A stretch of 64,000 bases of DNA, taken from assembly GCA_965279525.1 (NCBI GenBank), contig CBDIIB010000005.1, positions 1,344,001 to 1,408,000 on the forward strand, in the 5' to 3' direction. The notes beneath the pieces are model-generated. The model was given only the letters and a program-made list of their open reading frames with translations. It did no database searches and was not told the origin of the DNA. A program made the translations under genes and the position numbers. Shown piece by piece: positions 25,290 to 50,618 of this stretch. Source of the stretch: Tagaea sp. Lineage in GTDB: Bacteria > Pseudomonadota > Alphaproteobacteria > CACIAM-22H2. Within the stretch, counting starts at the first letter, position 1, and every line of letters starts with the position of its first letter.

Positions 25290-26126
25290 ATGTCGGTGCG
25301 GCACAGCCTGGCGGTCCTGGCGCTCGCGGCCGCCTTTGCCGGCGCCGCACCCGGTGCCGTCGCCGCCCAGGATCTCCAGTTCGGCGTGCTGCCCAACGTC
25401 AGCGCGCGGGTCATCCTCACCAACTACCGGCCGTTCCGCGAATATCTTGCCGCGGCACTTGGCCAGCCGGTCGAGGTGACGACGGCGCCCGATTTCCGCG
25501 AATTCCATGCGCGAACGATGGCCGGCGCCTATGATCTCGTCGTGACGGCCTCCAATCTCGGCCGTCTCGCGCAGGTCGACGCGAAGCTCGAACTCATCGC
25601 CGGCTTCGATCCGCCGATCCCGGCACTGCTCGTCATGCGCAAGGCGGCACCGGTCACGGCGATCGAATCACTTCGCGGCAAGTCGCTGGCGGTCGCCAAT
25701 CCGCAGTCGCTGGTCGTCCTTCGCGGCAAGAACTGGCTCAAGGAGCAGGGGCTTGTCTTCGACGTCGACTACAAGACGACCTGGGCGCGCAACGAAGACA
25801 GTCTCGCGCAGGTCCTCGTGTCGGGCGAAGCGCCGCTGGCGATGATGAGCATGGGCGAGTTCCGCACGATCCGCGAGGAGATCCGCCAGACTCTCGATGT
25901 CCATCGCGAATTCGCGCGCGTGCCCAACTTCTTCGTGCTGCGCGGCAGGGAGATGCCGGCCGCGCGCGCGGCGGCCCTGCGCGACGCGATCGCCCGGTTT
26001 CCGTCGACCGATCTTGGCCGTGAGTTCCTGACACTGACGAACGTGCAGAACATCCGGCCGGTTCCGGGCGCGGATCTCGCGGTTCTCGATGGTGTCGTCG
26101 ACGAAACGCGAAATCTCTTGCGCTGA
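25290..26126 (+). CDS. PhnD-like (phosphate/phosphonate-type) periplasmic binding protein, orphan
   Basis: Signal peptide; LQFGVLP, YRPFREYLAAALG, LRGKSLA..NPQS PBP type 2 pattern; no permease or ATPase adjacent. Confidence 0.75.
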   Translation: MSVRHSLAVLALAAAFAGAAPGAVAAQDLQFGVLPNVSARVILTNYRPFREYLAAALGQPVEVTTAPDFREFHARTMAGAYDLVVTASNLGRLAQVDAKLELIAGFDPPIPALLVMRKAAPVTAIESLRGKSLAVANPQSLVVLRGKNWLKEQGLVFDVDYKTTWARNEDSLAQVLVSGEAPLAMMSMGEFRTIREEIRQTLDVHREFARVPNFFVLRGREMPAARAAALRDAIARFPSTDLGREFLTLTNVQNIRPVPGADLAVLDGVVDETRNLLR

Positions 26127-26152
26127 GGAAGGACGACCCCCGGGGTCCCCCG

Positions 26153-28099
26153 ATGTTCCAGCGCATTCCCTTCCGGTTCAAGCTTTTCGCCGCCGGTGCT
26201 CTGGCCCTGCTGGCCGTCACGGGCGTGCACACCTATATCCAGGCCGCCCTCGTCGAGGAGGCCCTGACGCGTCAGGTCGTGGAGCGCGCCGAGGCCGAAC
26301 GCCCGTTCTTCCGCGCTTCCATCGCCAGCCTGCTGGTCACGCGCGACTACGCGACGATCGCCGACGTGTTCCGCGAAAGTGCCGCGACCAACGGCCTCGC
26401 GCATCTGGCGCTCGTCGACGCGCGCGGCAATACGGTGGCGTGCGAGGGCTGGGATCCGGCATTGCACGGCCTTCCGGTCGAATCGGCCGACCCTGTCCGC
26501 GGCCCGGACGGCACGTTGCGCCTGCCCTTCGCGATCCCGATCGAATATGCCGGCCAGAATCTCGGCACGCTCTACTACGGCGTGTCGTGGGCGCCGATCG
26601 AGGCGGCGCACGCCGAGATCCTCCGGCGGGGCCTGATCATCGGCGCCGTCAGCCTCGTCGTGGCGCTGATGATGATGGAGTGGCTCCACGCGCTGATCAT
26701 GCGCCCGTTGACGCGCCTGCGCGAGGCGAGCGAGGCGATCCGCAAGGGCGAGTTCGATGTCGGCCTGCCGCCGACCGGCGGCAACGACATCGGACGGCTG
26801 ACCGAGAGCTTCCGCTTCATGGCGTCCGAGATCGCCACGCGCATCCGGGCCCTCGAGGCGAGCGAGGCAGCACAGCGCGATTTGCTCGAGGAAGCGCGGC
26901 TGCGCGAAATCCAGCTTGCCGAGGCGCGCGACAAGGCGGAAGAAGCCGCGCGCACCAAGGCCCGCTTCCTCGCGACGATGAGCCACGAGATCCGCACGCC
27001 GCTAAACGGCGTGCTGGGCCTGTCGAGCGTGCTGCTCGACCAGCGTTTCGATCCCGAGCAGCGCCGGCTCGTCCAGCTCATCCAGGATTCGGGCGAGCAG
27101 CTTCTCGGCATCGTCAACGACGTGCTCGACTATTCCAAGCTCGACGCCGACAAGCTGGTGCTCGAGCGCACGGAGTTCGCGCCCGCGCGCCTGACGCACG
27201 ACACGGTCGAAGGATTCAAGGGCAGGGCTGCGGCCAAGGGTCTCGAGTTCGGATGCGACGTGGCGCCAGGCGTGGCCGAACGCTTCGCCGGCGACGCGAT
27301 CCGCGTGCGCCAGATCCTCGATAACCTGGTCGCCAACGCGATCAAGTTCACGACGCACGGGCGTGTCGACGTTTCGCTGCGCATGCTCGACGATGCGCGC
27401 GCCTCGCTCGAGTGGCGCATCACCGATACCGGCATCGGGATCCCGCCCGAGCGGCGTGGCGAACTTTTCCAGGATTTCATGCAGGTCGATTCGACGACCG
27501 CGCGCCGCTTCGGCGGGACGGGGCTGGGCCTTGCGATCTGCCGCCGCCTGATCAAGCTGATGGACGGCGAGATCTCGGTCGAATCGCAGGTCGGCAAAGG
27601 ATCGGCATTCACGTTCCGCCTGCCGACGCGGTCGCTCGAACCGGCCGCTGCACCCGCGTCCTTGCCGGCCGTACGCGCGGTCCCGGCACCGGTGCGCCGC
27701 GGGTCGGGCCTGTACGTCCTTGCCGCCGAGGACAACGAGATCAACCGCTACGTGATCGAGAAGCTGCTCGAGGGAATGGGCCACGACGTCGTGTTCGCCG
27801 CCGACGGCGCCGAGGCCATCGAGCTCGCTGGACGGCTGCGCTTTGACGTGGTGCTGATGGACATCCAGATGCCGATGGTCGACGGCATCACGGCTGCCGG
27901 CCGCATCCGGGCGATGGAAGGTGCGGGCGCGCATGTGCCGATCATCGCGCTGACCGCGCATGCGATGGCGGGCGATCGGGAAAGCTACCTGAAGGCCGGC
28001 ATGGACGATTACGTCGCCAAGCCGATCGATCCCGATGCCCTGGCACGCGCGCTGGCCCGGGTGACCGGACGAGGACACGGTTTAAGATTGTTATCTTAG
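26153..28099 (+). CDS. Hybrid sensor histidine kinase (2TM-HAMP-HisKA-HATPase-REC)
   Basis: FLATMSHEIRTPLNG H-box, NLVANAIKFT, DTGIG, GGTGLGL; receiver AEDN, VVLMDIQMP, TA, KP. Confidence 0.95.
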   Translation: MFQRIPFRFKLFAAGALALLAVTGVHTYIQAALVEEALTRQVVERAEAERPFFRASIASLLVTRDYATIADVFRESAATNGLAHLALVDARGNTVACEGWDPALHGLPVESADPVRGPDGTLRLPFAIPIEYAGQNLGTLYYGVSWAPIEAAHAEILRRGLIIGAVSLVVALMMMEWLHALIMRPLTRLREASEAIRKGEFDVGLPPTGGNDIGRLTESFRFMASEIATRIRALEASEAAQRDLLEEARLREIQLAEARDKAEEAARTKARFLATMSHEIRTPLNGVLGLSSVLLDQRFDPEQRRLVQLIQDSGEQLLGIVNDVLDYSKLDADKLVLERTEFAPARLTHDTVEGFKGRAAAKGLEFGCDVAPGVAERFAGDAIRVRQILDNLVANAIKFTTHGRVDVSLRMLDDARASLEWRITDTGIGIPPERRGELFQDFMQVDSTTARRFGGTGLGLAICRRLIKLMDGEISVESQVGKGSAFTFRLPTRSLEPAAAPASLPAVRAVPAPVRRGSGLYVLAAEDNEINRYVIEKLLEGMGHDVVFAADGAEAIELAGRLRFDVVLMDIQMPMVDGITAAGRIRAMEGAGAHVPIIALTAHAMAGDRESYLKAGMDDYVAKPIDPDALARALARVTGRGHGLRLLS

Positions 28100-28289: not shown

Positions 28290-31200
28290 ATGCCCGAGGC
28301 GACGACACCCCCTGACCGGCACACGACACGACGCGCGGCATCGCGTCGTTCGGCGCGCTGGGGTCGTCGACGCTTGCAGCGCGCCCATCTCGGATGGCCC
28401 CTTGCACTGGCACTCGGCAGTTCGCTCGCCGGTCCTGCGTTCGCGCAGAACCTGCCGCAGGGCGGCACCGTCACGGGCGGATCGGGCACGATCCAGCAGA
28501 TCGACGCGAACCTGCTGCAGATCCAGCAGAACACGCAGAACATGTCGATCGACTGGCAGAGCTTCAATGTCGGTCCGTCGGGCATCGTGCGCTTCCTGCA
28601 GCCCAGTTCGAGTTCCATCGCGCTCAACCGCGTCATCGGCAACGACCCTTCCGCGATCTACGGCCAGATCCAGGCGAACGGGCAGGTCATCCTGCTCAAT
28701 CCCAAAGGCATCTATTTCGGACCCAACAGCAGCGTCGACGTCAACGCGCTGGTCGCGACGACGGCGAACATCCGCAACGACGATTTCATGGCCGGGCGGC
28801 TGCACTTCGAGCAGGGCTCGGGCGATCCCGACGCGCGCGTGGTCAACGCGGGCCTCGTCTCGGTGGCGCAGGGCGGATTCGCGATTCTCGCGGCCGCCGG
28901 CGTGCAGAACACCGGCCGCATCGTCGCGAACGGCGGCACGGTCGTGCTCGCAGGCACGAAGACGTTCACGGTCGACTTCCACGGCGACGGGCTGCTGAGC
29001 TTCGCGGCGACCGGCACGGTCGAACAGGCGCCGTCGGGCGCATCGGCACTCGTCGACAATTCGGGCATCGTCGAGGCGGCGGGCGGGCGCGTGCTGATGA
29101 CCGCACGCGCCGCGCGCGACGTGCTGGCCAACGTCATCAACACGACCGGCATCGTCGTGGCGCACACGGCGCAGATGGTCAACGGCGAGATCGTCATCGA
29201 CGGCGGCGACAACGGCATCGTCAATGTCGGCGGCACGCTCGACGCGTCGGGCCGGGGTGCGGGCGAGACCGGCGGCACGGTCAAGGTGCTGGGCGAATCC
29301 GTGCGGCTTGCCGCGGGTGCCGCCATCGATGCGGCCGGCGATGCCGGCGGCGGCACGGTGCTGGTCGGCGGCAACTACCAGGGACAGGGGCCCGAGCGCA
29401 CCGCGCGGATCGCCTACATGGACGCGGCCGCGGTGATCGACGCGAGCGCGCTGACGTCGGGCAACGGCGGCAAGGTCATCCTGTGGGCCGACGACACGGC
29501 CAGCATGGCCGGCACGATCTCGGCGCGCGGCGGCGCGCTGTCGGGCAATGGCGGCTTCGTCGAGACATCCGGCAAGAACCGGATCTCCATCGCCGACACG
29601 ACGCGCGTCTACACGACGGGCGCCACCGGCAACGCCGGCAACTGGCTGATCGATCCGACCGACTTCACGATCGCCTTCTCCGGCGGCGACATGACCGGTG
29701 CGGCACTCATCATCAATCTGGGGCTCGGAAACGTCACGATCCAGTCGAATTCGGGCGGCAGCGGCACGAGCGGCACGATCTTCGTCAACGACGCGATCAT
29801 CAATACGGCACTCGGTGCGCGCACGCTGACCCTCGACGCGGTTGGCGGGATCGAGATCAACAGCGCGATCAGTTCGACCCTCAATCCGCTGAACCTCAAC
29901 CTGTGGGCCGGCAGCGACATCGTCATCGCCGCCAACATCTCGACGAATGGCGGCAATGTCACGACGAACGGCACGGGCGGTGCGGGTCAGGCGGGCGGCG
30001 TCTTCTCGAACAGCTACGCCCTCGATGTCGGGTCGGGCAACATCACGCTCAACCAGGCGTTCGGCATCTCGATGCCCGGCTCGATCCTGACATCGACGGG
30101 AACGGTCACGTTCAACTCGGACGGCAACGTGACGAACGCCGCCGGCGGCTACATCACCGGCCCCGCCAATCTCGTCGTCGCCGGCACCGGTAACGTCACG
30201 CTCAATTCGGCAAGCAACGCGATCTCGAACATCACGCTCAACCGGACGGGCACGGCCGGCAACATCTCGATCGTCAGTTCGATCTCGCCCAACATCCAGA
30301 CCTCCACGCTCGGCACCGGCACCTTCAGCATCACCGGCGTGGGCTTCGTGCAGTCGGGCACGATCACGCAGGATGGCGGCGGCGGTGCCGTCACGATCAA
30401 CGGCGGCACGGGCAGCGTCACGCTGGGCCAGGCCAACACGTTCACCGGTGCTCTCACCGTCACCAGCGACTTGATCTCGGCGACGGCCGCGCAGACTCTG
30501 TCTTCGGCGCTCACGCTGCAGCCGTACACGGCCAGCACGAACGTCATCTTCAACGGCTCCGGCGGCGGATTGCAGCTGACCGCGGCGACTCTCGGGAACT
30601 TCTCCGGCTACACGTCGCTGACGGCGGGATCGAGCACCGCCGGCACGCTCACCGTTTCAAGCGCCTTCGCGGCACCCGCCAACGTCGATGTGAACCTGCT
30701 GTCGGGCGGCGCCATGTCGGTCTCCGGCAACCTGACAACGTCGGGCACGGGCAGCATCGATCTGCGGTCGGCGGCGAACGTCGTCGTCTCGGGCGATCTT
30801 ACGACTGGCGGCGGCGACATCTACGTCACTGGCAATGTCGCGTCCTGGGCCGGGCCGTTCGACAGCAATACGCCGGTCTACGGCAGCACCGCGGGCGCGT
30901 TCAACGGCGTCAGCATCACTGGCGGCGTCACCCTCGACGCCGGCGGCGGCGACATCTCCATCGCCGGCAAAGGTGGCGACTCGGGAGCGAACCTGCATGG
31001 CGTGCTGCAGGCGGCCAGCTCGGTCATCGGGACGTCGGGTGCCGGCAAGATCACGATCGCCGGCCTGGGCGGCTCGCCGGCCGGCGGCAACAACCATATA
31101 GGCATCGAGATCGGCGGTTCTATCACCGCGGCCGGGACGGGCGGCATCAAGCTGACCGGAACCGGCGGTGCCGCGACCGGCGCCAGCAACCAGTCCCATG

Positions 31201-43115: not shown

Positions 43116-45236
43116 TCACTTCCCGTCGAGGACGGTGACGGCCGTCCAGCCGGGCCCCGGCGGGGAATCGCGGAGCGGAGCGACCCGCCCGGCAAGGCTT
43201 GCCGCCGCCGTGTCGCCGTCCAGCGGCGGGGCCGTGAGCCGGGCGTGCGCGGCGGCGAAATCGCCCGCCCGGTAGAGGGCGAGGGCGGCCGCGAACGCCG
43301 CCGCATCCACTTTCGTCGCGGCGTCGAGCGGTTCGTAGATCGTCACCGGCTTCTCGCGCCCCTTGACCTGGATGCAGTCGAGCTCGCGCCACCCGATTTC
43401 CGGGCCGGGTGCGGCGTCGGCCAGCAGACGCACCGATTCCGCGCACATCACGTTGGTCCCGAAATATTTGTTCGCCCCCTCGAGGCGCGAGGCGAGGTTC
43501 ACCGTGTCGCCCATCACCGTGTAGTTGAAGCGCTTCTTCGAGCCGATATTGCCGACAAGTGCGCGCCCGCTGTTGAGCCCGATGCGCGCCTTGAGCTTGT
43601 GCCCGAGGAACAAGGCGGCCGGATCGGCGTTCATCGCGGCAAGCTTCGCGTTGCACGCAAGGGCCGCCTCGACGGCACGGCGCGCATGCGCCGGATCGTC
43701 CATCGGTGCCCCGAACACCGCGACGATCGCATCGCCGATATACTTGTCGACGAAACCGCCATGCGCCTCGACGATGTCGGTCATCGCCGAGAGATACATG
43801 TTCATCACCTGCACGAGCTGCTGGGGCGTCAGGCTCTCCGACAGGCCGGTGAACCCGGCGACGTCGGAGAACATCACGGTGATCTCGCGCTCTTCCCCGC
43901 CCAATTCGGGCGGGGCCTGCGCCGTCATCAGCCGGTCGACCATCGCGGGCGCCAGATAAAGCCCGAAGCTCCGGCGCAGCAGGCGCTTGTCCTTGTCGGC
44001 GACCGCGAAGCGGTAGCCGAGCAGACCCGCACCCGCAAGGAAGGAAGCGACGAGGGCGGTCAGGAACGGCCAGACGAGGGCGTTGTCGAGGGCGACGACG
44101 CTTGCTGCCGTCCAGGCCAGCGCCAGCCCGCCGAACGCCGCGACGAACGCCGTCGCCGGCAGGGCGAGGGCCGCCGTTGCCGTCGCGGCAAGCAGGATCG
44201 TGGCCGCCAGCCCTTCGCCGGCCCGCCCGAGCTCGGCAAGGCCGCCGCCGCGCAGCAGGTTGTTGACGAACGTGGCGTGGATGAACACGCCGGGGATCGC
44301 GTCGCGGACTACGTCTTCGCGCACGATGTCGGTGCGCGCGGGAAGCGCACAGCGCGCGCCGAAGGCCGCCCCTTCCTGTCCGGTCATGAAGCGGCGCGAC
44401 GTGAGCTTGCGGTCCTCGACGTCGAGCACCGTGCCGATGAACACGACCTTGTCCTTGAAGTGCTTCGCGAAGAACGCCGCATCGCCTTTCTCCGCGCAGG
44501 CGCGCAGGTCGCCGAGCGAAAAGGCCGGGATATCGGCGCCGCCGCCGTCGAAATCGATCGGCATCGCGTTGGCAGCCGAGCCGGGCAGGCGGCGGCCGTC
44601 GAACCACACGCCGTCGGCGCGAAGTTCCGGCTCGACCTTGCGCGCGCGCGCGGCGGCTTCGAGCCCGAGCGAGGTCTGCCGGGCGCCATCCTCGAGATCG
44701 AAGAACAGCGGTGCGCGCCTGATCGCCTCGTCGGGATCGCGGAACAGGTTGGTCGAACGGATGTTCGCGTCGTGGCCAACGGCGAAGCTCTGGCCCTGGA
44801 AGGGGCGGATCGGCGAAGCGCCGTGCTGCACCTTGCCCAGGATCAGCCGTCCCTCGCGCGAGCCGGCGCGCAACACCCGCAGGAAGTCGCGGTCGTAGCC
44901 GGGCACGAAACGCTCGACCGACGTGGGGAAGATCACGTCGAACGCGACGACCGAAGCGCCGGCGTCGAGCACCGCGTTCAGCACCGGGGCCATTTCGCGT
45001 GTCCAGAAGGCCTGCGGCACGTCGGCGAAGGGCGGCGTGCGGTAGGATTCCTCGTCGATCGCCACGACGACGCTGGGCGAGGTGGCCGCATCGTGCCGCG
45101 GCCCGAAGGCGAGATGGCGCAGCGCGAATGTCAGGTCGAGAGAGATGCCGCGCAGCGTGTCGGCCAGCGGCGAGGCGACGAAAAGCGCGCCGAGGAGGAC
45201 GGCCGCGACGGCGGCCCCGGACGCGTGGCGCTTCAT
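43116..45236 (-). CDS. CHASE2-domain class III adenylate cyclase
   Basis: CHASE2 (VVVAIDEES, AFDVIF, DPDEAIRR, DKVVFIG, PGVFIHA), 3 TMs, catalytic FSDVAGFT, DKYIGDA, YTVMGDTVNLASRLE (Lys/Thr ATP-selecting pair). Confidence 0.93.
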   Translation of the reverse strand: MKRHASGAAVAAVLLGALFVASPLADTLRGISLDLTFALRHLAFGPRHDAATSPSVVVAIDEESYRTPPFADVPQAFWTREMAPVLNAVLDAGASVVAFDVIFPTSVERFVPGYDRDFLRVLRAGSREGRLILGKVQHGASPIRPFQGQSFAVGHDANIRSTNLFRDPDEAIRRAPLFFDLEDGARQTSLGLEAAARARKVEPELRADGVWFDGRRLPGSAANAMPIDFDGGGADIPAFSLGDLRACAEKGDAAFFAKHFKDKVVFIGTVLDVEDRKLTSRRFMTGQEGAAFGARCALPARTDIVREDVVRDAIPGVFIHATFVNNLLRGGGLAELGRAGEGLAATILLAATATAALALPATAFVAAFGGLALAWTAASVVALDNALVWPFLTALVASFLAGAGLLGYRFAVADKDKRLLRRSFGLYLAPAMVDRLMTAQAPPELGGEEREITVMFSDVAGFTGLSESLTPQQLVQVMNMYLSAMTDIVEAHGGFVDKYIGDAIVAVFGAPMDDPAHARRAVEAALACNAKLAAMNADPAALFLGHKLKARIGLNSGRALVGNIGSKKRFNYTVMGDTVNLASRLEGANKYFGTNVMCAESVRLLADAAPGPEIGWRELDCIQVKGREKPVTIYEPLDAATKVDAAAFAAALALYRAGDFAAAHARLTAPPLDGDTAAASLAGRVAPLRDSPPGPGWTAVTVLDGK

Positions 45237-45238
45237 GT

Positions 45239-45895
45239 CTAGAGCCGGATGAGGCGGCTCAGCAGCGGTGCCTGTCCCGATCGTGCCTCGGGGTCGACCT
45301 TGAAGACGATGTTCCGCTCGCCGACCGACAGACGGTAGGTTCCGCCGGCGACCAGCGCGCGGTCGGCCTTGGCGAGATCGAAGAAGCTGCCGCGCGTGAG
45401 CTGCTGGGCCGGCACGTCGAAAGCCATCGGTTCGCCCGGCTGGTCGAGACGCGCGATCGACACGCGCCCGCCACCCTTGATGTCGAGCACGGGCGAAATG
45501 CCGTAGATCGTCATCTCGGGCGCGTTCGCGGCGGCACCCGGCCTGGGCGGCGCGCGGAAGACCATGACGCCGGACTTCGCCGCCTGGTCGGAGGAAAGGC
45601 GCATCTTGCCGGCATCGCACGGCATCTTCTCGCGCCGCACGGTGCCGCCGGCCACGCTCGACTGCTCGGCGCCCACGGTGACCGTCCCGCCCTTGATCGT
45701 CTCGCGCCAGCAAGACTTCAGATAGCCCAGCACCAGCTCGTCGCCGGCGCCCAGCTTCACGACGCGCCCGGCCTCGACATAGTCCATGAAGTCCACGTCG
45801 AGCTTGCCCTTGGCATCCTCGACGATGGCGACGGGGTCGGCTGCAAGTGCAGGTGCTGCGGCGAGCGAAAGGAGAAGCGCCAGAACGCGATGCAT
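45239..45895 (-). CDS. Exported hypothetical protein (218 aa), beta-rich N-domain with a Cys pair
   Basis: Signal peptide ending ALA-A; ends 2 nt before the cyclase start; typical codon usage. Confidence 0.75.
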   Translation of the reverse strand: MHRVLALLLSLAAAPALAADPVAIVEDAKGKLDVDFMDYVEAGRVVKLGAGDELVLGYLKSCWRETIKGGTVTVGAEQSSVAGGTVRREKMPCDAGKMRLSSDQAAKSGVMVFRAPPRPGAAANAPEMTIYGISPVLDIKGGGRVSIARLDQPGEPMAFDVPAQQLTRGSFFDLAKADRALVAGGTYRLSVGERNIVFKVDPEARSGQAPLLSRLIRL

Positions 45896-45917
45896 CCGGG
45901 ACCGTCTGCTGCGCTGA

Positions 45918-47336
45918 CTATTTGAACGTGACATCGGTCGACTTGCCTTGCTCTGTGGTGAAATTGACCTGCACATACTTCTCTTTTTCGGCCGCGATGA
46001 CCCTTCCGCGCATAATCGATTTCGTCTGGTCGCCGAAGCGCCCGCAGACGATTTCGATTTCGGAAAATGTGCCATCTTCGCCGATCGGCCCGCTGCCGGC
46101 GCAGTTGCCGCCGCCGCCGCGTGGCCCGCCCGTCCACGAGGCGCCTAGCCGGATGCTGCCCTGCGCGACCGTGGCAAATGCGTGCGTGCCGGAGCTGCTG
46201 ATGACGCCGAGCGCAATGTTCGCCGAATACACGCCGTTGAACTGGGTGCCGGCGCGAGCCGCCGGTACGGAAGCGACCTGCTGGGGTGGTGCCACGACCG
46301 GTGCCGGTGCCGGCGCCGCCACAGGCGCCGGGGCTGCAGCGACAGGTGCCGGTGCTGGCGCCGGTGCTGGGGCCGCACGCGCGGCGACGACCTGCTGGCG
46401 GGCGGCTTCGAGGCTTGCCACGCGCGCGCGCGCGATGCCCGCGAACATGCCGGTCGGGAACGTGTCGAGATAGGCGCGCAGCTCGGCGGGATCGCTCGAT
46501 CCCTTGACCGAATCCCAGAACATCGCTTCGCGGTCGACGGCGGGTGCTGCCGCTGCGGCAGGTGCTGTCGGCGCCACGGCGGCCGATGCGGCCGCCGGCG
46601 GCTGGAAATAGAAGTCGCCGGTCAGCGACGAGGCTTCCCAAGGGACCTGTGCGCCGTTGGACGCGCGCGCCACGCCGATGCGCACCTGCTTGAAAACGTC
46701 TTCGGCTTTCAGGCCCGGCTGCGCCAGCGCCTTCAGCAGTTCTTGCGTATAAAGCCCGTTGGAACCCTCGCCGTCGGCGGCGACTTTGCCGGGAGCGGTC
46801 GCATAGGCGATCATCGTGCCTTCGGGTGCATTGATCTGTGCGAGGCCGCCACCGACCGAGCGGAAGCGCCGCTCGAACGGATTGTTCCGGCAGGCATCGA
46901 GAATGACCATGCTGACGCGCGCGCGCGCTGCCGCCATCTGGTCGAGCACGGCGTCGATGTCGAGCGTTTCCAGCCGCACGCGCTGCTCGGACGTGATCCT
47001 GGCGTCGGTCGGGATCAGGTAGTTGCGGCCCTGCACCTGCATGCCGTGGCCGGCGAAGAAGAACAGCGCCGTGTCGCCCTCGCTCAGCTTCTCGCCGAAA
47101 TCGGCGACGACCTCGTTCATCTGCGCCTTCGTGGCGTTCTCGCGCAGGAGCACCTCGAACCCCTGCCGGCGCAGCGTGGCGGCGATCGCGCGCGCGTCGT
47201 TGGGCGGGTTCTTGAGCGGGGCCTCGGCGTAGCTGCCGTTGCCGATGACCAGCGCCACTTTCTTGCTGGCGAGGGCCGGCGTGCCGACCGCCAGAAGCGC
47301 GCTCAGGAAGGCGAGTAGGCGGATCAATGGATGCAT
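45918..47336 (-). CDS. Exported caspase-family (peptidase C14) protein
   Basis: Signal peptide; ALVIGN.SY, LKNPPNDA, FFAGHG (His), ILDACRNNP (Cys), YATAPG, QVPW; helical FWDSV..YL..FP.G.FA module; Pro/Ala linker; unknown C-terminal domain. Confidence 0.93.
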   Translation of the reverse strand: MHPLIRLLAFLSALLAVGTPALASKKVALVIGNGSYAEAPLKNPPNDARAIAATLRRQGFEVLLRENATKAQMNEVVADFGEKLSEGDTALFFFAGHGMQVQGRNYLIPTDARITSEQRVRLETLDIDAVLDQMAAARARVSMVILDACRNNPFERRFRSVGGGLAQINAPEGTMIAYATAPGKVAADGEGSNGLYTQELLKALAQPGLKAEDVFKQVRIGVARASNGAQVPWEASSLTGDFYFQPPAAASAAVAPTAPAAAAAPAVDREAMFWDSVKGSSDPAELRAYLDTFPTGMFAGIARARVASLEAARQQVVAARAAPAPAPAPAPVAAAPAPVAAPAPAPVVAPPQQVASVPAARAGTQFNGVYSANIALGVISSSGTHAFATVAQGSIRLGASWTGGPRGGGGNCAGSGPIGEDGTFSEIEIVCGRFGDQTKSIMRGRVIAAEKEKYVQVNFTTEQGKSTDVTFK

Positions 47337-47423
47337 CTCATGCCCCCCCGGTCGAACCCGGCAAAACCGTCACAGGCTGATACCTACGTTAGTCCCGACC
47401 GGCCCCGCCCGCAGTGATGCCGC

Positions 47424-50400
47424 TCACTCCGATACTTGCGAAACCTGCCGTGCGCCCGAGCCGCCACCGTCCCCGACGAGGGCGAACGGCGCCCAGAAGA
47501 TGGGGTGGCTGTAGGCGAAGACGGTCTGGCGGTTGGCGGGATCGACGTAACCCGGTCCGTCGATCAGGGCCGCCATCGCCTGCTGGAGGGCGGCCGCGCG
47601 CGCAAGACCCGGATCGCGCGCCTGGCGCCCGAACAGGTCGGTCGTCAGCACGCGCGCACTCGTCGTCTCGACCGGCCAGTTGGTCACCAGCAGGGCGCGG
47701 GTTCCGGCATAGAAGAACGCCCGGCCAAGGCCGGAGACGGCTTCCGCCCCCGCCCCGTCGCCCGTCGCCGTGTTGCAGGCCGACAGCACGACCCAGTCGG
47801 CATTGAGTTTAAGGCCCAGTACCTCGTCGAGCGTCAGCAGCCCGTCGCCGTCGATGTCGGCGACGTTGGGCGCCGACAGGGCGAGAGCCGGCTGCGTGAG
47901 CCCGTTGAGATCGCCCGGGATCAGCCCGTGCGTGGCGAACATCACCACCCGCCGGTTCGACAGGTCCATCGTCTTGACGTTGCGCTCGTTGGCGGCCGCC
48001 CCCAGGAACACGTCCGAGGCATCGGCGTTGAGCGCCAGCGCGATCCCCTTCACCTCGTCCGACGTGTCGGGCAGGCGCGGCAGCATGGCAAGCTCGGCAC
48101 TGTCGACGGTCGACGTCGCGGGTGCGGAACGCCGCACGAGCTTCACGCCCCTTGTCTGCAGGCCGCGCGTGGTCAGCTGGGCGACCTGCTGCGTGGCCGC
48201 TTCGACCTTCGCCTCGGCCATCTGCTCGGCGCTGAACCACGGATCGCCGAAGCCCGCGAACGCCTTGCGGTTGGCAGGTGCGGCCGGCAGGTTGCGCAGC
48301 GTGGCCAGCGAGGCGACCGACGGAAGCTGGGTGATGCCGGCCTTGCGGATCAGGAACGGCACCTTCCTGTACGCCGAGAACAGCGCTTCGCCCTCGCGCT
48401 CGGCGGCAAGCTGTGCAGGCTCGGTCACCAGCACGCCGAACGGCAGCTGGCCCAGCACGTCGTGCGGCACGACCAGCAGCGACGTGGCGTTGGCGAAGCC
48501 CGCTTCGACCGGCTTCAGCAGGTCGGCATAGAGCTTGCCCGCGAGCGCCACGTCGAAGGCCGGGATGTCGCCAAGCGTGGCGGCGTTGGGGTCAAGCGAC
48601 TTGCGCAGGCTCGCGACCGTCGCGGCCATCGCCTTCTGCCCGACGGGCACGGCCGAGAACGCGACCGCTCCCGCCTGCGGGACGGCCCACACGAAGCTCT
48701 GCTCCATGCCCACATAGGTGGCGATCAGTGCTTCGCCGGGCCGCAACGAGCGGCGGGCCTGCTCGACCGTCGCGGGGCGCGGATCGATCAGGTTCACATA
48801 ATCCGGAAAGCGCCGCTCGATCTCCTGGCGGATCGCCGCGCGTGCAGCGCGCAAGGAATCGATCTGCGTGCGCAGGACACGCACCGCCGCGTCGTCGCGC
48901 TCGGGGGCCGACAGCACGTTGGTCAGCAGCCCCTGCAGCGCGCCCACCTGCTTCTGCGTGTCCTGCTCCTGGCGCACGAACTCGGCCAGGGCCGGGTCCG
49001 ACGCCGACGCGCGCGCCGAGCTTTGCGCCAGTGCCCGCTGCACGCCCTGCCCGCGGATCGCGTCGGCAAGGCGGAACGACTCCTCTGCAGAACCCGCTCG
49101 ATTCGACGCCGAAAGCGCGCGCAGTGCCGACTCGAACACCACGCGCAGCTGGCTGTCGCGCTGCGCCGAACCGCCTTCTTCGTCGTCTGCCTGGCGTGAG
49201 GACTGCAGCAGGATCGGTGTCGCGGCGTCGAACTCGGCCAGCGCACCGGCCGTGTCGCCGAGCCGGCCTTTGGCCGCACCCAGCATGCCGCGGCTGATGG
49301 CCGTGTCCCAGTGCCGCTCGCCCAGCGTCTGCACGTTGCGCGCGACGACATTGGTCATCACGCGACGCGCTTCCTCGGCGTTGCCGCCGCGCAGCGACAC
49401 CATTCCCCAGTGCGCGTTGGAGTCGAAGGCCTGGCGCAACACGTCCGGGTTGGACGCCATGCGCTTGCGCAGGTCCTCGTAGGTCGCCGCGGCTGCCTGC
49501 CATTCGCCCTGCTGGCTCTGCGCGCGCGCGACCTGCCGGAGTGCCCGCGCGTACATGCCGGACGCCGGATCGACCTTCATCTGTTCGAGCGAGTCGAACG
49601 CGACGCGACCGAGGCGGTGGGCCTCGGCAGGGCGGCCCTGTTCGAGCAGGATGTCGCCCAGCCCGAGGACCGAACTGAGCGTTTCGGGCGCGTAGCGGCC
49701 CTGGATGGCAAGCCGGCCGAGCAGCACGGCGCGCGTTTCCACTTCGGCCTCGACGAGGCGGCCCTGGCGCGCAAGTGCGCGCGCAAGCTCGCCGCGGATG
49801 ACGTAGCCGAGATTCGTATAGGCTCTCGGCGGCTGGTTCTGCTGGCGCGTGATCGACGCCTCGTCGCGGATCAGCCGGTCGTTGCTGGAGATCGCCGCGC
49901 GCAGATGGCGTTCGGCCTCGGCGAAGCGGCCTTCCTCCATCGCGATGGTGGCCGACGAGCGCGCCACGAAAGTTTCCGCGCTCCACAGCACGAACTGCGG
50001 CAGGCGCGGGGCGTTGCGCAGTTCGGTCAGCGTCGATTCCATCCTCGGAAGCTCGACTTTCGCGGTCGCGATATCGCCGAGCTGCACGGCCGCTCCGACG
50101 AGACTCGACTGGGCCGAGATGCGCGCGCCGGGACTGGGCGCGATGGCGACGCGGCGCTGGTGCAGCGTGAAGGCCGTGCGTCCGTTGCCGATCTGCTGTT
50201 CGCTGATCGCCCACTGCTGGAGATAGCGCGCGTTGATTGCCGGCGACGCGTTGGCCGCACTGGCAAGCTCGTAGGCGCGCTTGAAATCGGCCACGCGCTG
50301 ATTGACGCGGCCGAGTTCCTCGGCGGCGATGCCGCGCTCGAACAGGAACGCGGCGAGATCGGTCCCGCGCAGGGTGGCGGGCGGCTCGGCATCGGCCTTC

Positions 50401-50618
50401 GCGACGGCGGCGGCGACGCGCGCGGGGTCGGGCTTCTGCTGGTCGAGGATCGCGGCAATGTCGGAGATCGTGCGCGGCGGCGGGCGGAAGCCCTGGCCCT
50501 GGAACTCGGCCGTGATCTGGCGGGCCTGCTGCAGGCTCACCGCCGGCTTGCCGTCCGGCTGGCAGCCCCACAGCAGAAAGAGCGCGAGCACGCATGCGGT
50601 GCTTCGGAATTCGTGCAT
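47424..50618 (-). CDS. TPR-CHAT domain lipoprotein protease (1064 aa)
   Basis: Lipobox LWGC; TPR-like helical array; LLVVPHD.L..LPF..L, FAGFGDP, FATHG (His), WVVLSACNT (Cys), FYAG, HPIFWAPF. Confidence 0.93.
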   Translation of the reverse strand: MHEFRSTACVLALFLLWGCQPDGKPAVSLQQARQITAEFQGQGFRPPPRTISDIAAILDQQKPDPARVAAAVAKADAEPPATLRGTDLAAFLFERGIAAEELGRVNQRVADFKRAYELASAANASPAINARYLQQWAISEQQIGNGRTAFTLHQRRVAIAPSPGARISAQSSLVGAAVQLGDIATAKVELPRMESTLTELRNAPRLPQFVLWSAETFVARSSATIAMEEGRFAEAERHLRAAISSNDRLIRDEASITRQQNQPPRAYTNLGYVIRGELARALARQGRLVEAEVETRAVLLGRLAIQGRYAPETLSSVLGLGDILLEQGRPAEAHRLGRVAFDSLEQMKVDPASGMYARALRQVARAQSQQGEWQAAAATYEDLRKRMASNPDVLRQAFDSNAHWGMVSLRGGNAEEARRVMTNVVARNVQTLGERHWDTAISRGMLGAAKGRLGDTAGALAEFDAATPILLQSSRQADDEEGGSAQRDSQLRVVFESALRALSASNRAGSAEESFRLADAIRGQGVQRALAQSSARASASDPALAEFVRQEQDTQKQVGALQGLLTNVLSAPERDDAAVRVLRTQIDSLRAARAAIRQEIERRFPDYVNLIDPRPATVEQARRSLRPGEALIATYVGMEQSFVWAVPQAGAVAFSAVPVGQKAMAATVASLRKSLDPNAATLGDIPAFDVALAGKLYADLLKPVEAGFANATSLLVVPHDVLGQLPFGVLVTEPAQLAAEREGEALFSAYRKVPFLIRKAGITQLPSVASLATLRNLPAAPANRKAFAGFGDPWFSAEQMAEAKVEAATQQVAQLTTRGLQTRGVKLVRRSAPATSTVDSAELAMLPRLPDTSDEVKGIALALNADASDVFLGAAANERNVKTMDLSNRRVVMFATHGLIPGDLNGLTQPALALSAPNVADIDGDGLLTLDEVLGLKLNADWVVLSACNTATGDGAGAEAVSGLGRAFFYAGTRALLVTNWPVETTSARVLTTDLFGRQARDPGLARAAALQQAMAALIDGPGYVDPANRQTVFAYSHPIFWAPFALVGDGGGSGARQVSQVSE

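Follow-up and report, generated by a model that had tools for sequence, protein, structure and literature searches.

The stretch of DNA considered here, referred to as the window, comprises 64,000 nucleotides (nt) of contig CBDIIB010000005.1 (positions 1,344,001 to 1,408,000, forward strand) of the alphaproteobacterium Tagaea sp. (assembly GCA_965279525.1; 5 contigs, 4.35 Mb, 97 % complete), and positions below are counted from its first letter. Its minus strand carries a co-directional gene quartet that encodes a TPR-CHAT protein, a caspase-family protease, a small protein designated P3 and a CHASE2 cyclase (Table 1). The gaps between these genes, given as 87, 22 and 2 nt in an earlier note on this DNA, were confirmed when the coordinates were recomputed. 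The quartet is discussed here as a putative input module of its cyclase, which is one of three CHASE2 cyclases encoded in the genome.

The quartet and its products

Table 1. Coordinates of the quartet and associated features in the window (aa, amino acids; TPS, two-partner secretion)
Feature	Position	Strand	Family or remark
TPR-CHAT lipoprotein, 1064 aa	47424-50618	-	Pfam CHAT and TPR_12
Exported C14 caspase-family protease, 472 aa	45918-47336	-	Pfam Peptidase_C14
P3, exported protein, 218 aa	45239-45895	-	no Pfam or NCBIfam family
P3 Arg114 codon (motif V-F-R)	45554-45556	-	candidate protease site or docking motif
CHASE2 class III cyclase, 706 aa	43116-45236	-	Pfam CHASE2 and Guanylate_cyc
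Giant TpsA-type exoprotein, 3923 aa	28290-40061	+	TPS domain and DUF5649; possible associated component, membership unproven

The region has a G+C content of 65-74 % and is rich in spurious open reading frames (ORFs). For the cyclase, the mechanically called ORF reaches a TTG at 45713, but translation plausibly begins at the ATG at 45236; this start leaves the 2-nt gap, and the P3 and cyclase genes are probably translationally coupled. A single transcription unit is suggested by the tight same-strand spacing.

The TPR-CHAT protein matches the Pfam CHAT model PF12770 over profile positions 2-289 of 289 (1.6e-49; 169.3 bits vs a cut-off of 24) as well as TPR_12 (2.5e-15), with the TPR array at residues ~90-470 and the CHAT domain at 691-1050. 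Both residues of the catalytic dyad are present (FATHG, His897; LSAC, Cys948), and the two columns are invariant in all 29 aligned domains, namely that of the window protein and those of 28 neighbours of P3 loci. Model match and dyad together place the protein among the CHAT proteases of PF12770. Export signals, here and below, were judged from sequence and hydropathy alone: a lipobox is predicted at LLWG-C19, and no segment of the protein exceeds the transmembrane (TM) threshold, the N terminus being a short lipoprotein signal. The lipobox pattern is matched by 17 of 26 orthologue N-termini, and, judged by eye, most of the others begin with a hydrophobic signal-like segment, so that the CHAT proteases of these clusters look active and exported. 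No PDB chain matched the protein by sequence at E≤0.01. Directly after the lipoprotein signal, residues 44-63 (window ~50430-50490, minus strand; PPPRTISDI..ILDQ.KPDP) form the most conserved N-terminal stretch, even in orthologues that are 33-46 % identical across the TPR part; this stretch also contains a conserved Arg.

The second protein matches Peptidase_C14 (2.8e-44; 152 bits vs a cut-off of 21.4) and consists of a signal peptide (residues 1-23, cleaved between ALA and S24), the caspase domain (25-243), an Ala/Pro-rich linker and a poorly conserved C-terminal domain. Its dyad (FAGHG, His97; LDAC, Cys149) is retained in 22 of 23 aligned caspase domains, and signal-like N-terminal segments are also found on neighbouring caspases of other lineages. 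The closest solved relative by sequence is the paracaspase MALT1 (2.6e-12), an Arg-specific protease. Relatives that share 80-98 % identity in the caspase domain share only 29-69 % in the C-terminal half (residues 246-472; window 45918-46600, minus strand), which is made up of the linker and a domain of ~110 aa and matched no Pfam model at E≤0.01.

The cyclase combines a CHASE2 match (2.1e-26; 93.5 bits vs a cut-off of 26.3) with a Guanylate_cyc match (2e-25; 89.9 bits). CHASE2 is a widespread sensor domain. Kyte-Doolittle hydropathy predicts a TM segment at residues 4-28, a periplasmic CHASE2 region at ~29-340 and a hydrophobic block at 341-407, followed by the class III cyclase domain at 450-632; model match, N-terminal TM segment and multi-TM block before the output domain together correspond to a CHASE2 receptor. 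The motifs contain D458, K498, D502, R551, D577, N580 and R584, and this set of Asp/Asp, Lys/Asp and Asn/Arg residues is what we take to be the adenylate-specific class III consensus, the Lys/Asp pair presumably specifying adenine. Sequence matches in the PDB span only the cyclase domain (residues 420-642), and no CHASE2 structure was found there by sequence.

The Pfam run bears out the CHAT, C14, CHASE2 and cyclase assignments of the earlier note and leaves P3, as that note did, without a family; the two dyads and the full class III set that it reported were likewise located, the latter being the presumed adenylate consensus. Its further claim that the sensory parts all lie outside the cytoplasm agrees with the predicted export signals and hydropathy.

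In a PADLOC search, the cyclase domain matched Pycsar PycC models (best 4.5e-30), which reflects shared class III homology in a protein that also carries a CHASE2 sensor, and the caspase matched a caspase model (1.4e-15); CHAT and P3 gave no PADLOC match. Such hits would fit an anti-phage or conflict system, in which an envelope-facing caspase-like sensor triggers a nucleotide cyclase and the product activates an effector. Two published observations point the same way, namely that a CBASS-CRISPR island is under the control of the periplasmic TPR-CHAT protein DdvA (PMC11506125) and that caspase-CHASE2 fusions, found in cyanobacteria, are also listed among conflict systems (PMC2853523, PMC8195603); here and below, statements on published work refer to the parts of the sources that were available. 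Nevertheless, the PADLOC matches are at domain level only, there is no effector gene within the cluster, and its same-strand flanks encode metabolic and transport functions: to one side an ATP-grasp enzyme and a peptide ABC transporter, to the other a nitrilase-family hydrolase, a PfkB kinase, an SDR and a cupin. Given also the presumed adenine-specifying Lys/Asp pair and the breadth and stability of the family in free-living Alphaproteobacteria, a defence role is regarded as highly improbable.

P3 belongs to a large family. At E≤1e-3, 891 relatives were found among the scored candidates in 90 % clusters, and 967 clusters at 50 % identity were matched; the named matches are all 'hypothetical protein', mostly from Alphaproteobacteria. 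Signal cleavage is predicted between ALA and A19. The AlphaFold2 (AF2) model (pLDDT 88.8, pTM 0.82) shows an N-terminal beta domain (~21-95), a flexible linker (~96-127) and an FN3-like beta sandwich (128-218), the linker being of low confidence (pLDDT 53-64 for residues 101-120). Cys62 and Cys93 are invariant in an alignment of 46 sequences and 99 % conserved in 137 representatives. Foldseek found no PDB match for P3 at E≤1e-3. With VIA-align, the best match of the N domain was 5ix9, a 'cell surface anchoring domain' (Z 7.8), and the C domain matched FN3 domains (Z ~6); because the VIA-align matches are generic and all below Z 8, no homology is drawn from the folds of P3 or of its counterpart P3b, described below. 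Fused forms were not seen among longer proteins, which is weak evidence.

Arg114 in the linker of P3, in the motif V-F-R, is kept in 99 % of the 137 representatives, and the positions that follow it (115-127) are variable, Pro/Ala-rich and indel-rich (5-31 % gaps). A conserved Arg that borders a flexible linker has the look expected of a cleavage site for clan CD proteases with Arg specificity, and cleavage of P3 in its interdomain linker is plausible on the modelled fold. Separase cleaves after Arg and craspases cleave after Met or Leu (PMC11506125).

Recurrence of the cluster across and within genomes

Relatives of P3 were gathered at 80 loci (L numbers) in species-representative genomes, with 43-96 % identity to P3; they include Tagaea-like metagenome-assembled genomes, Rhodospirillales, Xanthobacteraceae, Bradyrhizobium, Rhodoplanes and Reyranella. 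Relatives of the window proteins were found by tblastn, with thresholds of 1e-5 to 1e-3 for the neighbours, and genes were called by a simple GC3-based ORF picker, the small genes of the low-GC loci L085, L086, L088 and L089 being left out. The set is biased towards closer relatives because the query was built from 12 closer sequences.

Of the 73 loci whose downstream sequence spans 2300 nt or more, 69 have a CHASE2 cyclase gene directly after P3, the exceptions being L015, L058, L064 and L067; the gap, 2 nt in the window, is ~15-20 nt in six called loci. At L064:7577-10209, the P3 relative is followed by an exported TPR-C14 caspase of 651 aa, which replaces the cyclase. Full evaluation was possible at 42 loci, whose flanks extend 4 kb or more upstream and 6.5 kb or more downstream. 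Of these, 19 have a CHAT gene between -4 and +6.5 kb, 11 a C14 caspase gene and 23 either of them. At 26 loci, CHAT stands directly upstream of P3 in the same orientation. By gene order, P3 and the CHASE2 cyclase are thus the core pair, and TPR-CHAT is a frequent third partner.

The position of the caspase is different. It sits between CHAT and P3 in eight of these 26 loci and is absent from the other 18, which keep CHAT directly upstream of P3; on these grounds, it is an optional insert at a fixed position and a lineage-specific addition, not a fixed member of a cascade. At five loci (L047, L056, L061, L064, L068), exported C14 proteins with TPR or Sel1 repeats adjoin the P3-cyclase pair instead. 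Co-location of homologues in other genomes, whose absence would have refuted the proposal of the earlier note, is thus seen for P3 and the cyclase and largely for TPR-CHAT. The two-protease cascade running from CHAT to the caspase, which that note had proposed, is not supported, in view of the 18 CHAT-bearing loci that have no caspase and the evaluable loci, 19 in number, that have neither protease. Strong CHAT matches are present elsewhere in the genome in four of the five checked genomes with protease-free loci.

The association was also seen in an independent sample of 150 alphaproteobacterial genomes (G numbers), one per family, of which 62 contain CHASE2 and 26 contain CHAT. For nine of the 48 CHAT matches, spread over nine of the 26 CHAT-bearing genomes, a CHASE2 match is found no more than 3.2 kb away, and in five of these nine cases the distance from CHAT end to CHASE2 start is 770-860 nt, which fits one small gene. 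Chance adjacency is well under 1 % per gene by a rough estimate that assumes about one CHASE2 gene per few-Mb genome, no formal test being involved. Because the quartet arrangement recurs in many genomes, it is far beyond chance as far as gene order can tell, and the cluster is a real, recurrent system on the same evidence. On plasmids, CHAT relatives from Bradyrhizobium and Pseudosulfitobacter have no CHASE2 neighbour, and a PLSDB search for P3 at E≤1e-3 matched four Azospirillum records and no Sinorhizobium plasmid.

Proteins that bind cyclic nucleotides (cNMP) adjoin several P3-cyclase or P3b-cyclase pairs: a cyclic-nucleotide-gated ion channel (L057:13015-14160), a Crp-type regulator (L071:3042-3830), a fusion of a cNMP-binding domain with an aldehyde dehydrogenase (L079:7868-9757) and a cNMP-binding MscS-like channel (L083:10083-11582). 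These neighbours are likely readers of the cyclase product.

The Tagaea genome itself contains a second cluster, L082 (C5:1044655-1053494), located 340 kb from the first, with the same gene order and divergent sequences. It encodes a TPR-CHAT lipoprotein of 1021 aa (CHAT domain 38 % identical), an exported protein of 240 aa designated P3b and a CHASE2 cyclase. Upstream of its TPR-CHAT gene are genes for an exported 228-aa protein, which recurs in L084 between CHAT and cyclase (38 % identity, 1e-35), and for a 171-aa cNMP-binding protein.

P3b, like P3, has no Pfam family. Its own family comprises 100 matches and recurs beside CHASE2 cyclases and CHAT genes in L083, L084 and L091. The P3b model (pLDDT 86.1) follows the plan of P3, a linker joining its N-terminal beta domain to a beta sandwich, and the best VIA-align match of its N domain is again 5ix9 (Z 6.6). 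An invariant G-V-V-R motif of this unrelated-looking family, with the Arg at residue 113, precedes a variable stretch at a place equivalent to that of Arg114. Comparison of a single sequence with a profile gave a probability of 1 % for P3 and P3b, and comparison of profile with profile gave 20 % (E 1.1e-3), collinear over 186 columns and with the VFR and GVVR motifs aligned. As far as the models show, P3 and P3b share one design.

The third cluster, L092 (C5:1712000-1726000), consists of genes for a TPR protein, a FecR-domain protein (5.1e-11) and a CHASE2 cyclase, with a gene for a cNMP-binding regulator of Crp-like type facing it and one for an AcrB-type pump upstream. Taken together, the three clusters of this one genome point to a general layout in which a TPR or TPR-CHAT protein is followed by a small periplasmic protein and then a CHASE2 cyclase, a cNMP reader often being encoded as well.

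Proposed periplasmic input to a CHASE2 cyclase

CHASE2 receptors with periplasmic accessory proteins are already known, and the CHAT/P3 cluster is regarded as a variant of them. In Magnetospirillum, MtxA is an exported protein with FN3-like and TPR-like parts, and its gene is followed by that of a CHASE2 adenylate cyclase (PMC4439547). P3 resembles MtxA in being exported, beta-rich, FN3/Ig-like and encoded directly upstream of such a cyclase, and its C domain matches the FN3 structures 1tdq and 1oww listed for MtxA-Big (PMC4439547). The MtxA cluster is the nearest named one to P3 in the ESM Atlas, at a weak score of 0.76, and the C-terminal structure of MtxA (PDB 4Z29) resembles the P3b model weakly in fold (Z 4.5 over 106 residues). 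Unlike MtxA, P3 has no C-terminal TPR-like helices, and both P3 and P3b fail the MtxA Pfam models: neither PF24045 (DUF7354) nor PF22433 (MtxA_IG-like) had a match among 46 P3-family and 30 P3b-family members at E≤1, a threshold at which Pfam returned scattered single matches only. Also unlike the P3 cluster, no CHAT or caspase protein is mentioned for MtxA in the available part of PMC4439547.

A second precedent is provided by FecR and CHASE2 operons, in which the gene of a periplasmic accessory protein likewise adjoins that of a CHASE2 receptor. A LysM-FecR periplasmic protein of Burkholderia is encoded next to a CHASE2 histidine kinase (PMC5192318), and the FecR-domain protein SMc02177 of Sinorhizobium meliloti is encoded beside cyaD1 (PMC5498481). 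This form is matched exactly by L092. The P3 cluster differs in that the FecR model PF04773 matched neither P3 nor any of its 46 relatives, in that the output in Burkholderia is a histidine kinase, and in that those operons, as far as the available text describes them, have no protease.

Envelope input to CHASE2 adenylate cyclases is likewise known from S. meliloti, where CyaD1, CyaD2 and CyaK receive a protein signal via the outer-membrane beta-barrel NsrA, and a Crp-like regulator senses the cAMP produced (PMC13001267, PMC7529298). The Tagaea clusters are similar in their CHASE2 adenylate cyclases and likely Crp-like or cNMP-binding readers. They differ in their proteases, none being reported for the NsrA pathway in the available parts of these papers, and in P3, which was not found on any Sinorhizobium plasmid in PLSDB at E≤1e-3.

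On the protease side, the nearest parallel is DdvA of Myxococcus xanthus, a periplasmic TPR-CHAT protein for which self-cleavage of a flexible linker is proposed and unproven (PMC11506125). The window protein shares with it the TPR-CHAT architecture, the His/Cys dyad and the periplasmic side, and DdvA is proposed to signal across the inner membrane by the linker cleavage (PMC11506125). In DdvA, a single polypeptide also contains a TM helix and a cytoplasmic zinc anti-sigma domain, whereas the TPR-CHAT protein of the window is a separate lipoprotein; the output here is a cyclase and not an ECF sigma factor, and no anti-sigma family appeared in the Pfam scan. A DdvA-type anti-sigma identity was therefore rejected, the TPR-CHAT protein having neither a TM segment nor an anti-sigma family. 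Csx29 of Craspase, a CRISPR-Cas effector of type III-E, also joins a TPR array to CHAT with a His/Cys dyad and is partner-gated, and it is cytoplasmic, bound to Cas7-11 and activated by RNA, unlike the TPR-CHAT protein here with its export signal. A Csx29/Craspase identity was rejected on the lipoprotein signal, the transport and metabolic neighbours and the absence of any cas family from the Pfam scans of the window, no CRISPR array search having been made. The earlier note had taken cytoplasmic Csx29 as the best-studied TPR-CHAT protein, a premise that is outdated now that periplasmic DdvA has been described (PMC11506125).

Against this background, the cluster is read, with a probability of about one half, as a periplasmic input module for the CHASE2 adenylate cyclase, in which P3 is the accessory protein, the exported TPR-CHAT protein is a proteolytic regulator and the caspase is a lineage-specific addition. 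P3 would bind the CHASE2 domain as a co-sensor, and the TPR array would recognize an envelope protein cue, for which the giant TPS exoprotein encoded nearby is a candidate. CHAT, aided or duplicated by the caspase, would then cut the P3 linker after Arg114, or another envelope protein, and the cut would change the hold of P3 on the CHASE2 domain and thereby alter cAMP synthesis; the cAMP would be read by cNMP-binding proteins such as those encoded beside related clusters. Such a protease-gated cAMP switch is plausible. The data show the genes present, their export signals, the intact catalytic residues and the recurrent linkage across families; every physical contact in the switch, what is cut and where, and whether cutting raises or lowers the output, are inferred.

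Several observations weigh against this module. Loci that lack a protease close by conserve Arg114 to the same degree; hence it does not serve an adjacent protease alone and could be a docking residue instead of a cleavage site. Neither CHAT nor caspase occurs near P3 in 19 of the 42 evaluable loci, and 39 of the 48 CHAT matches in the 150-genome sample are not near CHASE2, so that CHAT proteins have other roles too. The counts also overstate independence, because the related loci are kin. A scan for transcription signals was uninformative, with no sigma-70-like promoter site and four terminator-like sites, compared with 5.1 expected from shuffled sequence. Among the precedents, deletion of mtxA gave no phenotype under standard conditions (PMC4439547), and the CyaD1-linked proteins SMc02177 (FecR) and SMb20495 (TPR) are reported to be cAMP/Clr targets that are dispensable for perception of the plant signal (PMC5498481).

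The last of these findings, together with the protease-free loci and the free gain and loss of the caspase, would also suit an arrangement in which P3 and the CHASE2 cyclase are a self-contained ligand sensor, while the proteases are co-regulated outputs under cAMP control, or mere neighbours, and not inputs. Adjacency of CHAT and CHASE2 in nine different families, mostly with one small gene between them, argues otherwise, as do the retention of CHAT in the divergent paralogous cluster of the same genome and the tight spacing indicative of a single transcription unit. A sensor that works independently of its proteases is accordingly considered rather improbable.

The periplasmic input module bears on two questions. 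To our knowledge, most bacterial homologues of CHAT and caspases, those of CRISPR type III-E aside, have no known substrate. The ligands and activation mechanism of CHASE2 have been described as unknown (PMC5192318). A literature search joining CHASE2 with 'CHAT domain', supplements left aside, found no paper, and a looser search returned only the caspase-CHASE2 fusions (PMC2853523, PMC8195603). The compact recurrent set, which links an exported CHAT protein, a small periplasmic protein with a linker Arg and a CHASE2 cyclase, makes both CHASE2 activation and the CHAT substrate testable. The paralogous second system, the two-partner secretion link and the MtxA and FecR precedents upstream of CHASE2 genes all go beyond the content of the earlier note.

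Two-partner secretion genes beside the clusters

Approximately 3 kb from the cyclase gene, on the opposite strand and beyond four metabolic genes, lies the giant ORF of Table 1. It contains the TPS domain PF05860 (3.9e-35; 122.7 bits vs a cut-off of 33.5; window 28443-29237) and 14 matched stretches of DUF5649 (3.9e-123). With its TPS domain and a TpsB gene in the same genome it has the features of a TpsA protein, and secretion is predicted. It is the sole TPS-domain gene of the genome, and the sole ShlB/TpsB gene, 326 kb away, adjoins the second cluster L082 as a divergently oriented gene for a ShlB/POTRA_2 outer-membrane protein. Since the single TPS gene is near the first cluster and the single ShlB gene near the second, each CHAT-CHASE2 cluster adjoins, on the map, one half of the only TPS pair of the genome. 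The TPS link suggests what the CHAT-P3-CHASE2 system may watch. A literature search joining 'CHAT domain' with 'two-partner secretion', again with supplements left aside, found no paper.

The link is not confined to Tagaea. Genome G004 contains a contiguous same-strand run of genes for TpsB, TpsA (3996 aa, with DUF5649), CHAT, a P3b-like protein, a CHASE2 cyclase and a cNMP-binding MscS-like channel; in G010, genes for TpsB, TpsA and TPR-CHAT adjoin a CHASE2 gene, and on an Azospirillum plasmid a P3-like gene, a cyclase gene and a ShlB/FhaC gene follow one another. The 150 sampled genomes gave 57 ShlB matches, of which 14 have a CHASE2 or CHAT match no more than 16 kb away and seven no more than 3 kb away; one of the 57 comes from G040, a genome flagged as unpublished, and is not among the adjacent cases. 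The further ShlB/TpsB genes located 0.7-7.5 kb from CHASE2 or CHAT in G010 (C1:3284225-3288168) and in G146 (four places) suggest repeated use of TpsB with CHASE2/CHAT.

These arrangements would also agree with a different division of labour, in which the proteases act on the giant TpsA, maturing, trimming or releasing it, and not on P3, while P3 and the CHASE2 cyclase report the state or fragments of the surface protein as cAMP. Processing of FhaB by SphB1 and of LapA by LapG offers a comparison. The placing of the single TPS and TpsB genes each near one cluster, the run in G004, the neighbours in G010, the Azospirillum plasmid and the ShlB counts all favour this possibility. On the other hand, four of the nine sampled genomes with adjacent CHAT and CHASE2 lack TPS and ShlB matches altogether, and most P3-cyclase loci have no TPS gene in the fetched flanks. 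The giant gene of the window lies on the other strand from the cluster, with the four metabolic genes in between, and its relative position, kept in the close relatives L002-L006, L010 and L013, may be plain synteny. TpsA as the substrate is thus considered unlikely.

A more specific form of the periplasmic input module would have TPR-CHAT, with or without the caspase, sense the giant TPS protein at the TpsB pore and cut CHASE2-bound P3 after Arg114, which would release a pulse of cAMP. It is quite doubtful in this form. If true, it would be the first defined mechanism of CHASE2 activation and would provide a physiological substrate for the non-CRISPR bacterial CHAT proteases, and a surface or adhesion event would be converted, outside-in, to a second messenger.

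Directly upstream of the giant gene and on the same strand (window 25290-28099, plus strand) are genes for a phosphonate-type periplasmic binding protein and a hybrid histidine kinase, the latter with HAMP, HisKA, HATPase and receiver domains.

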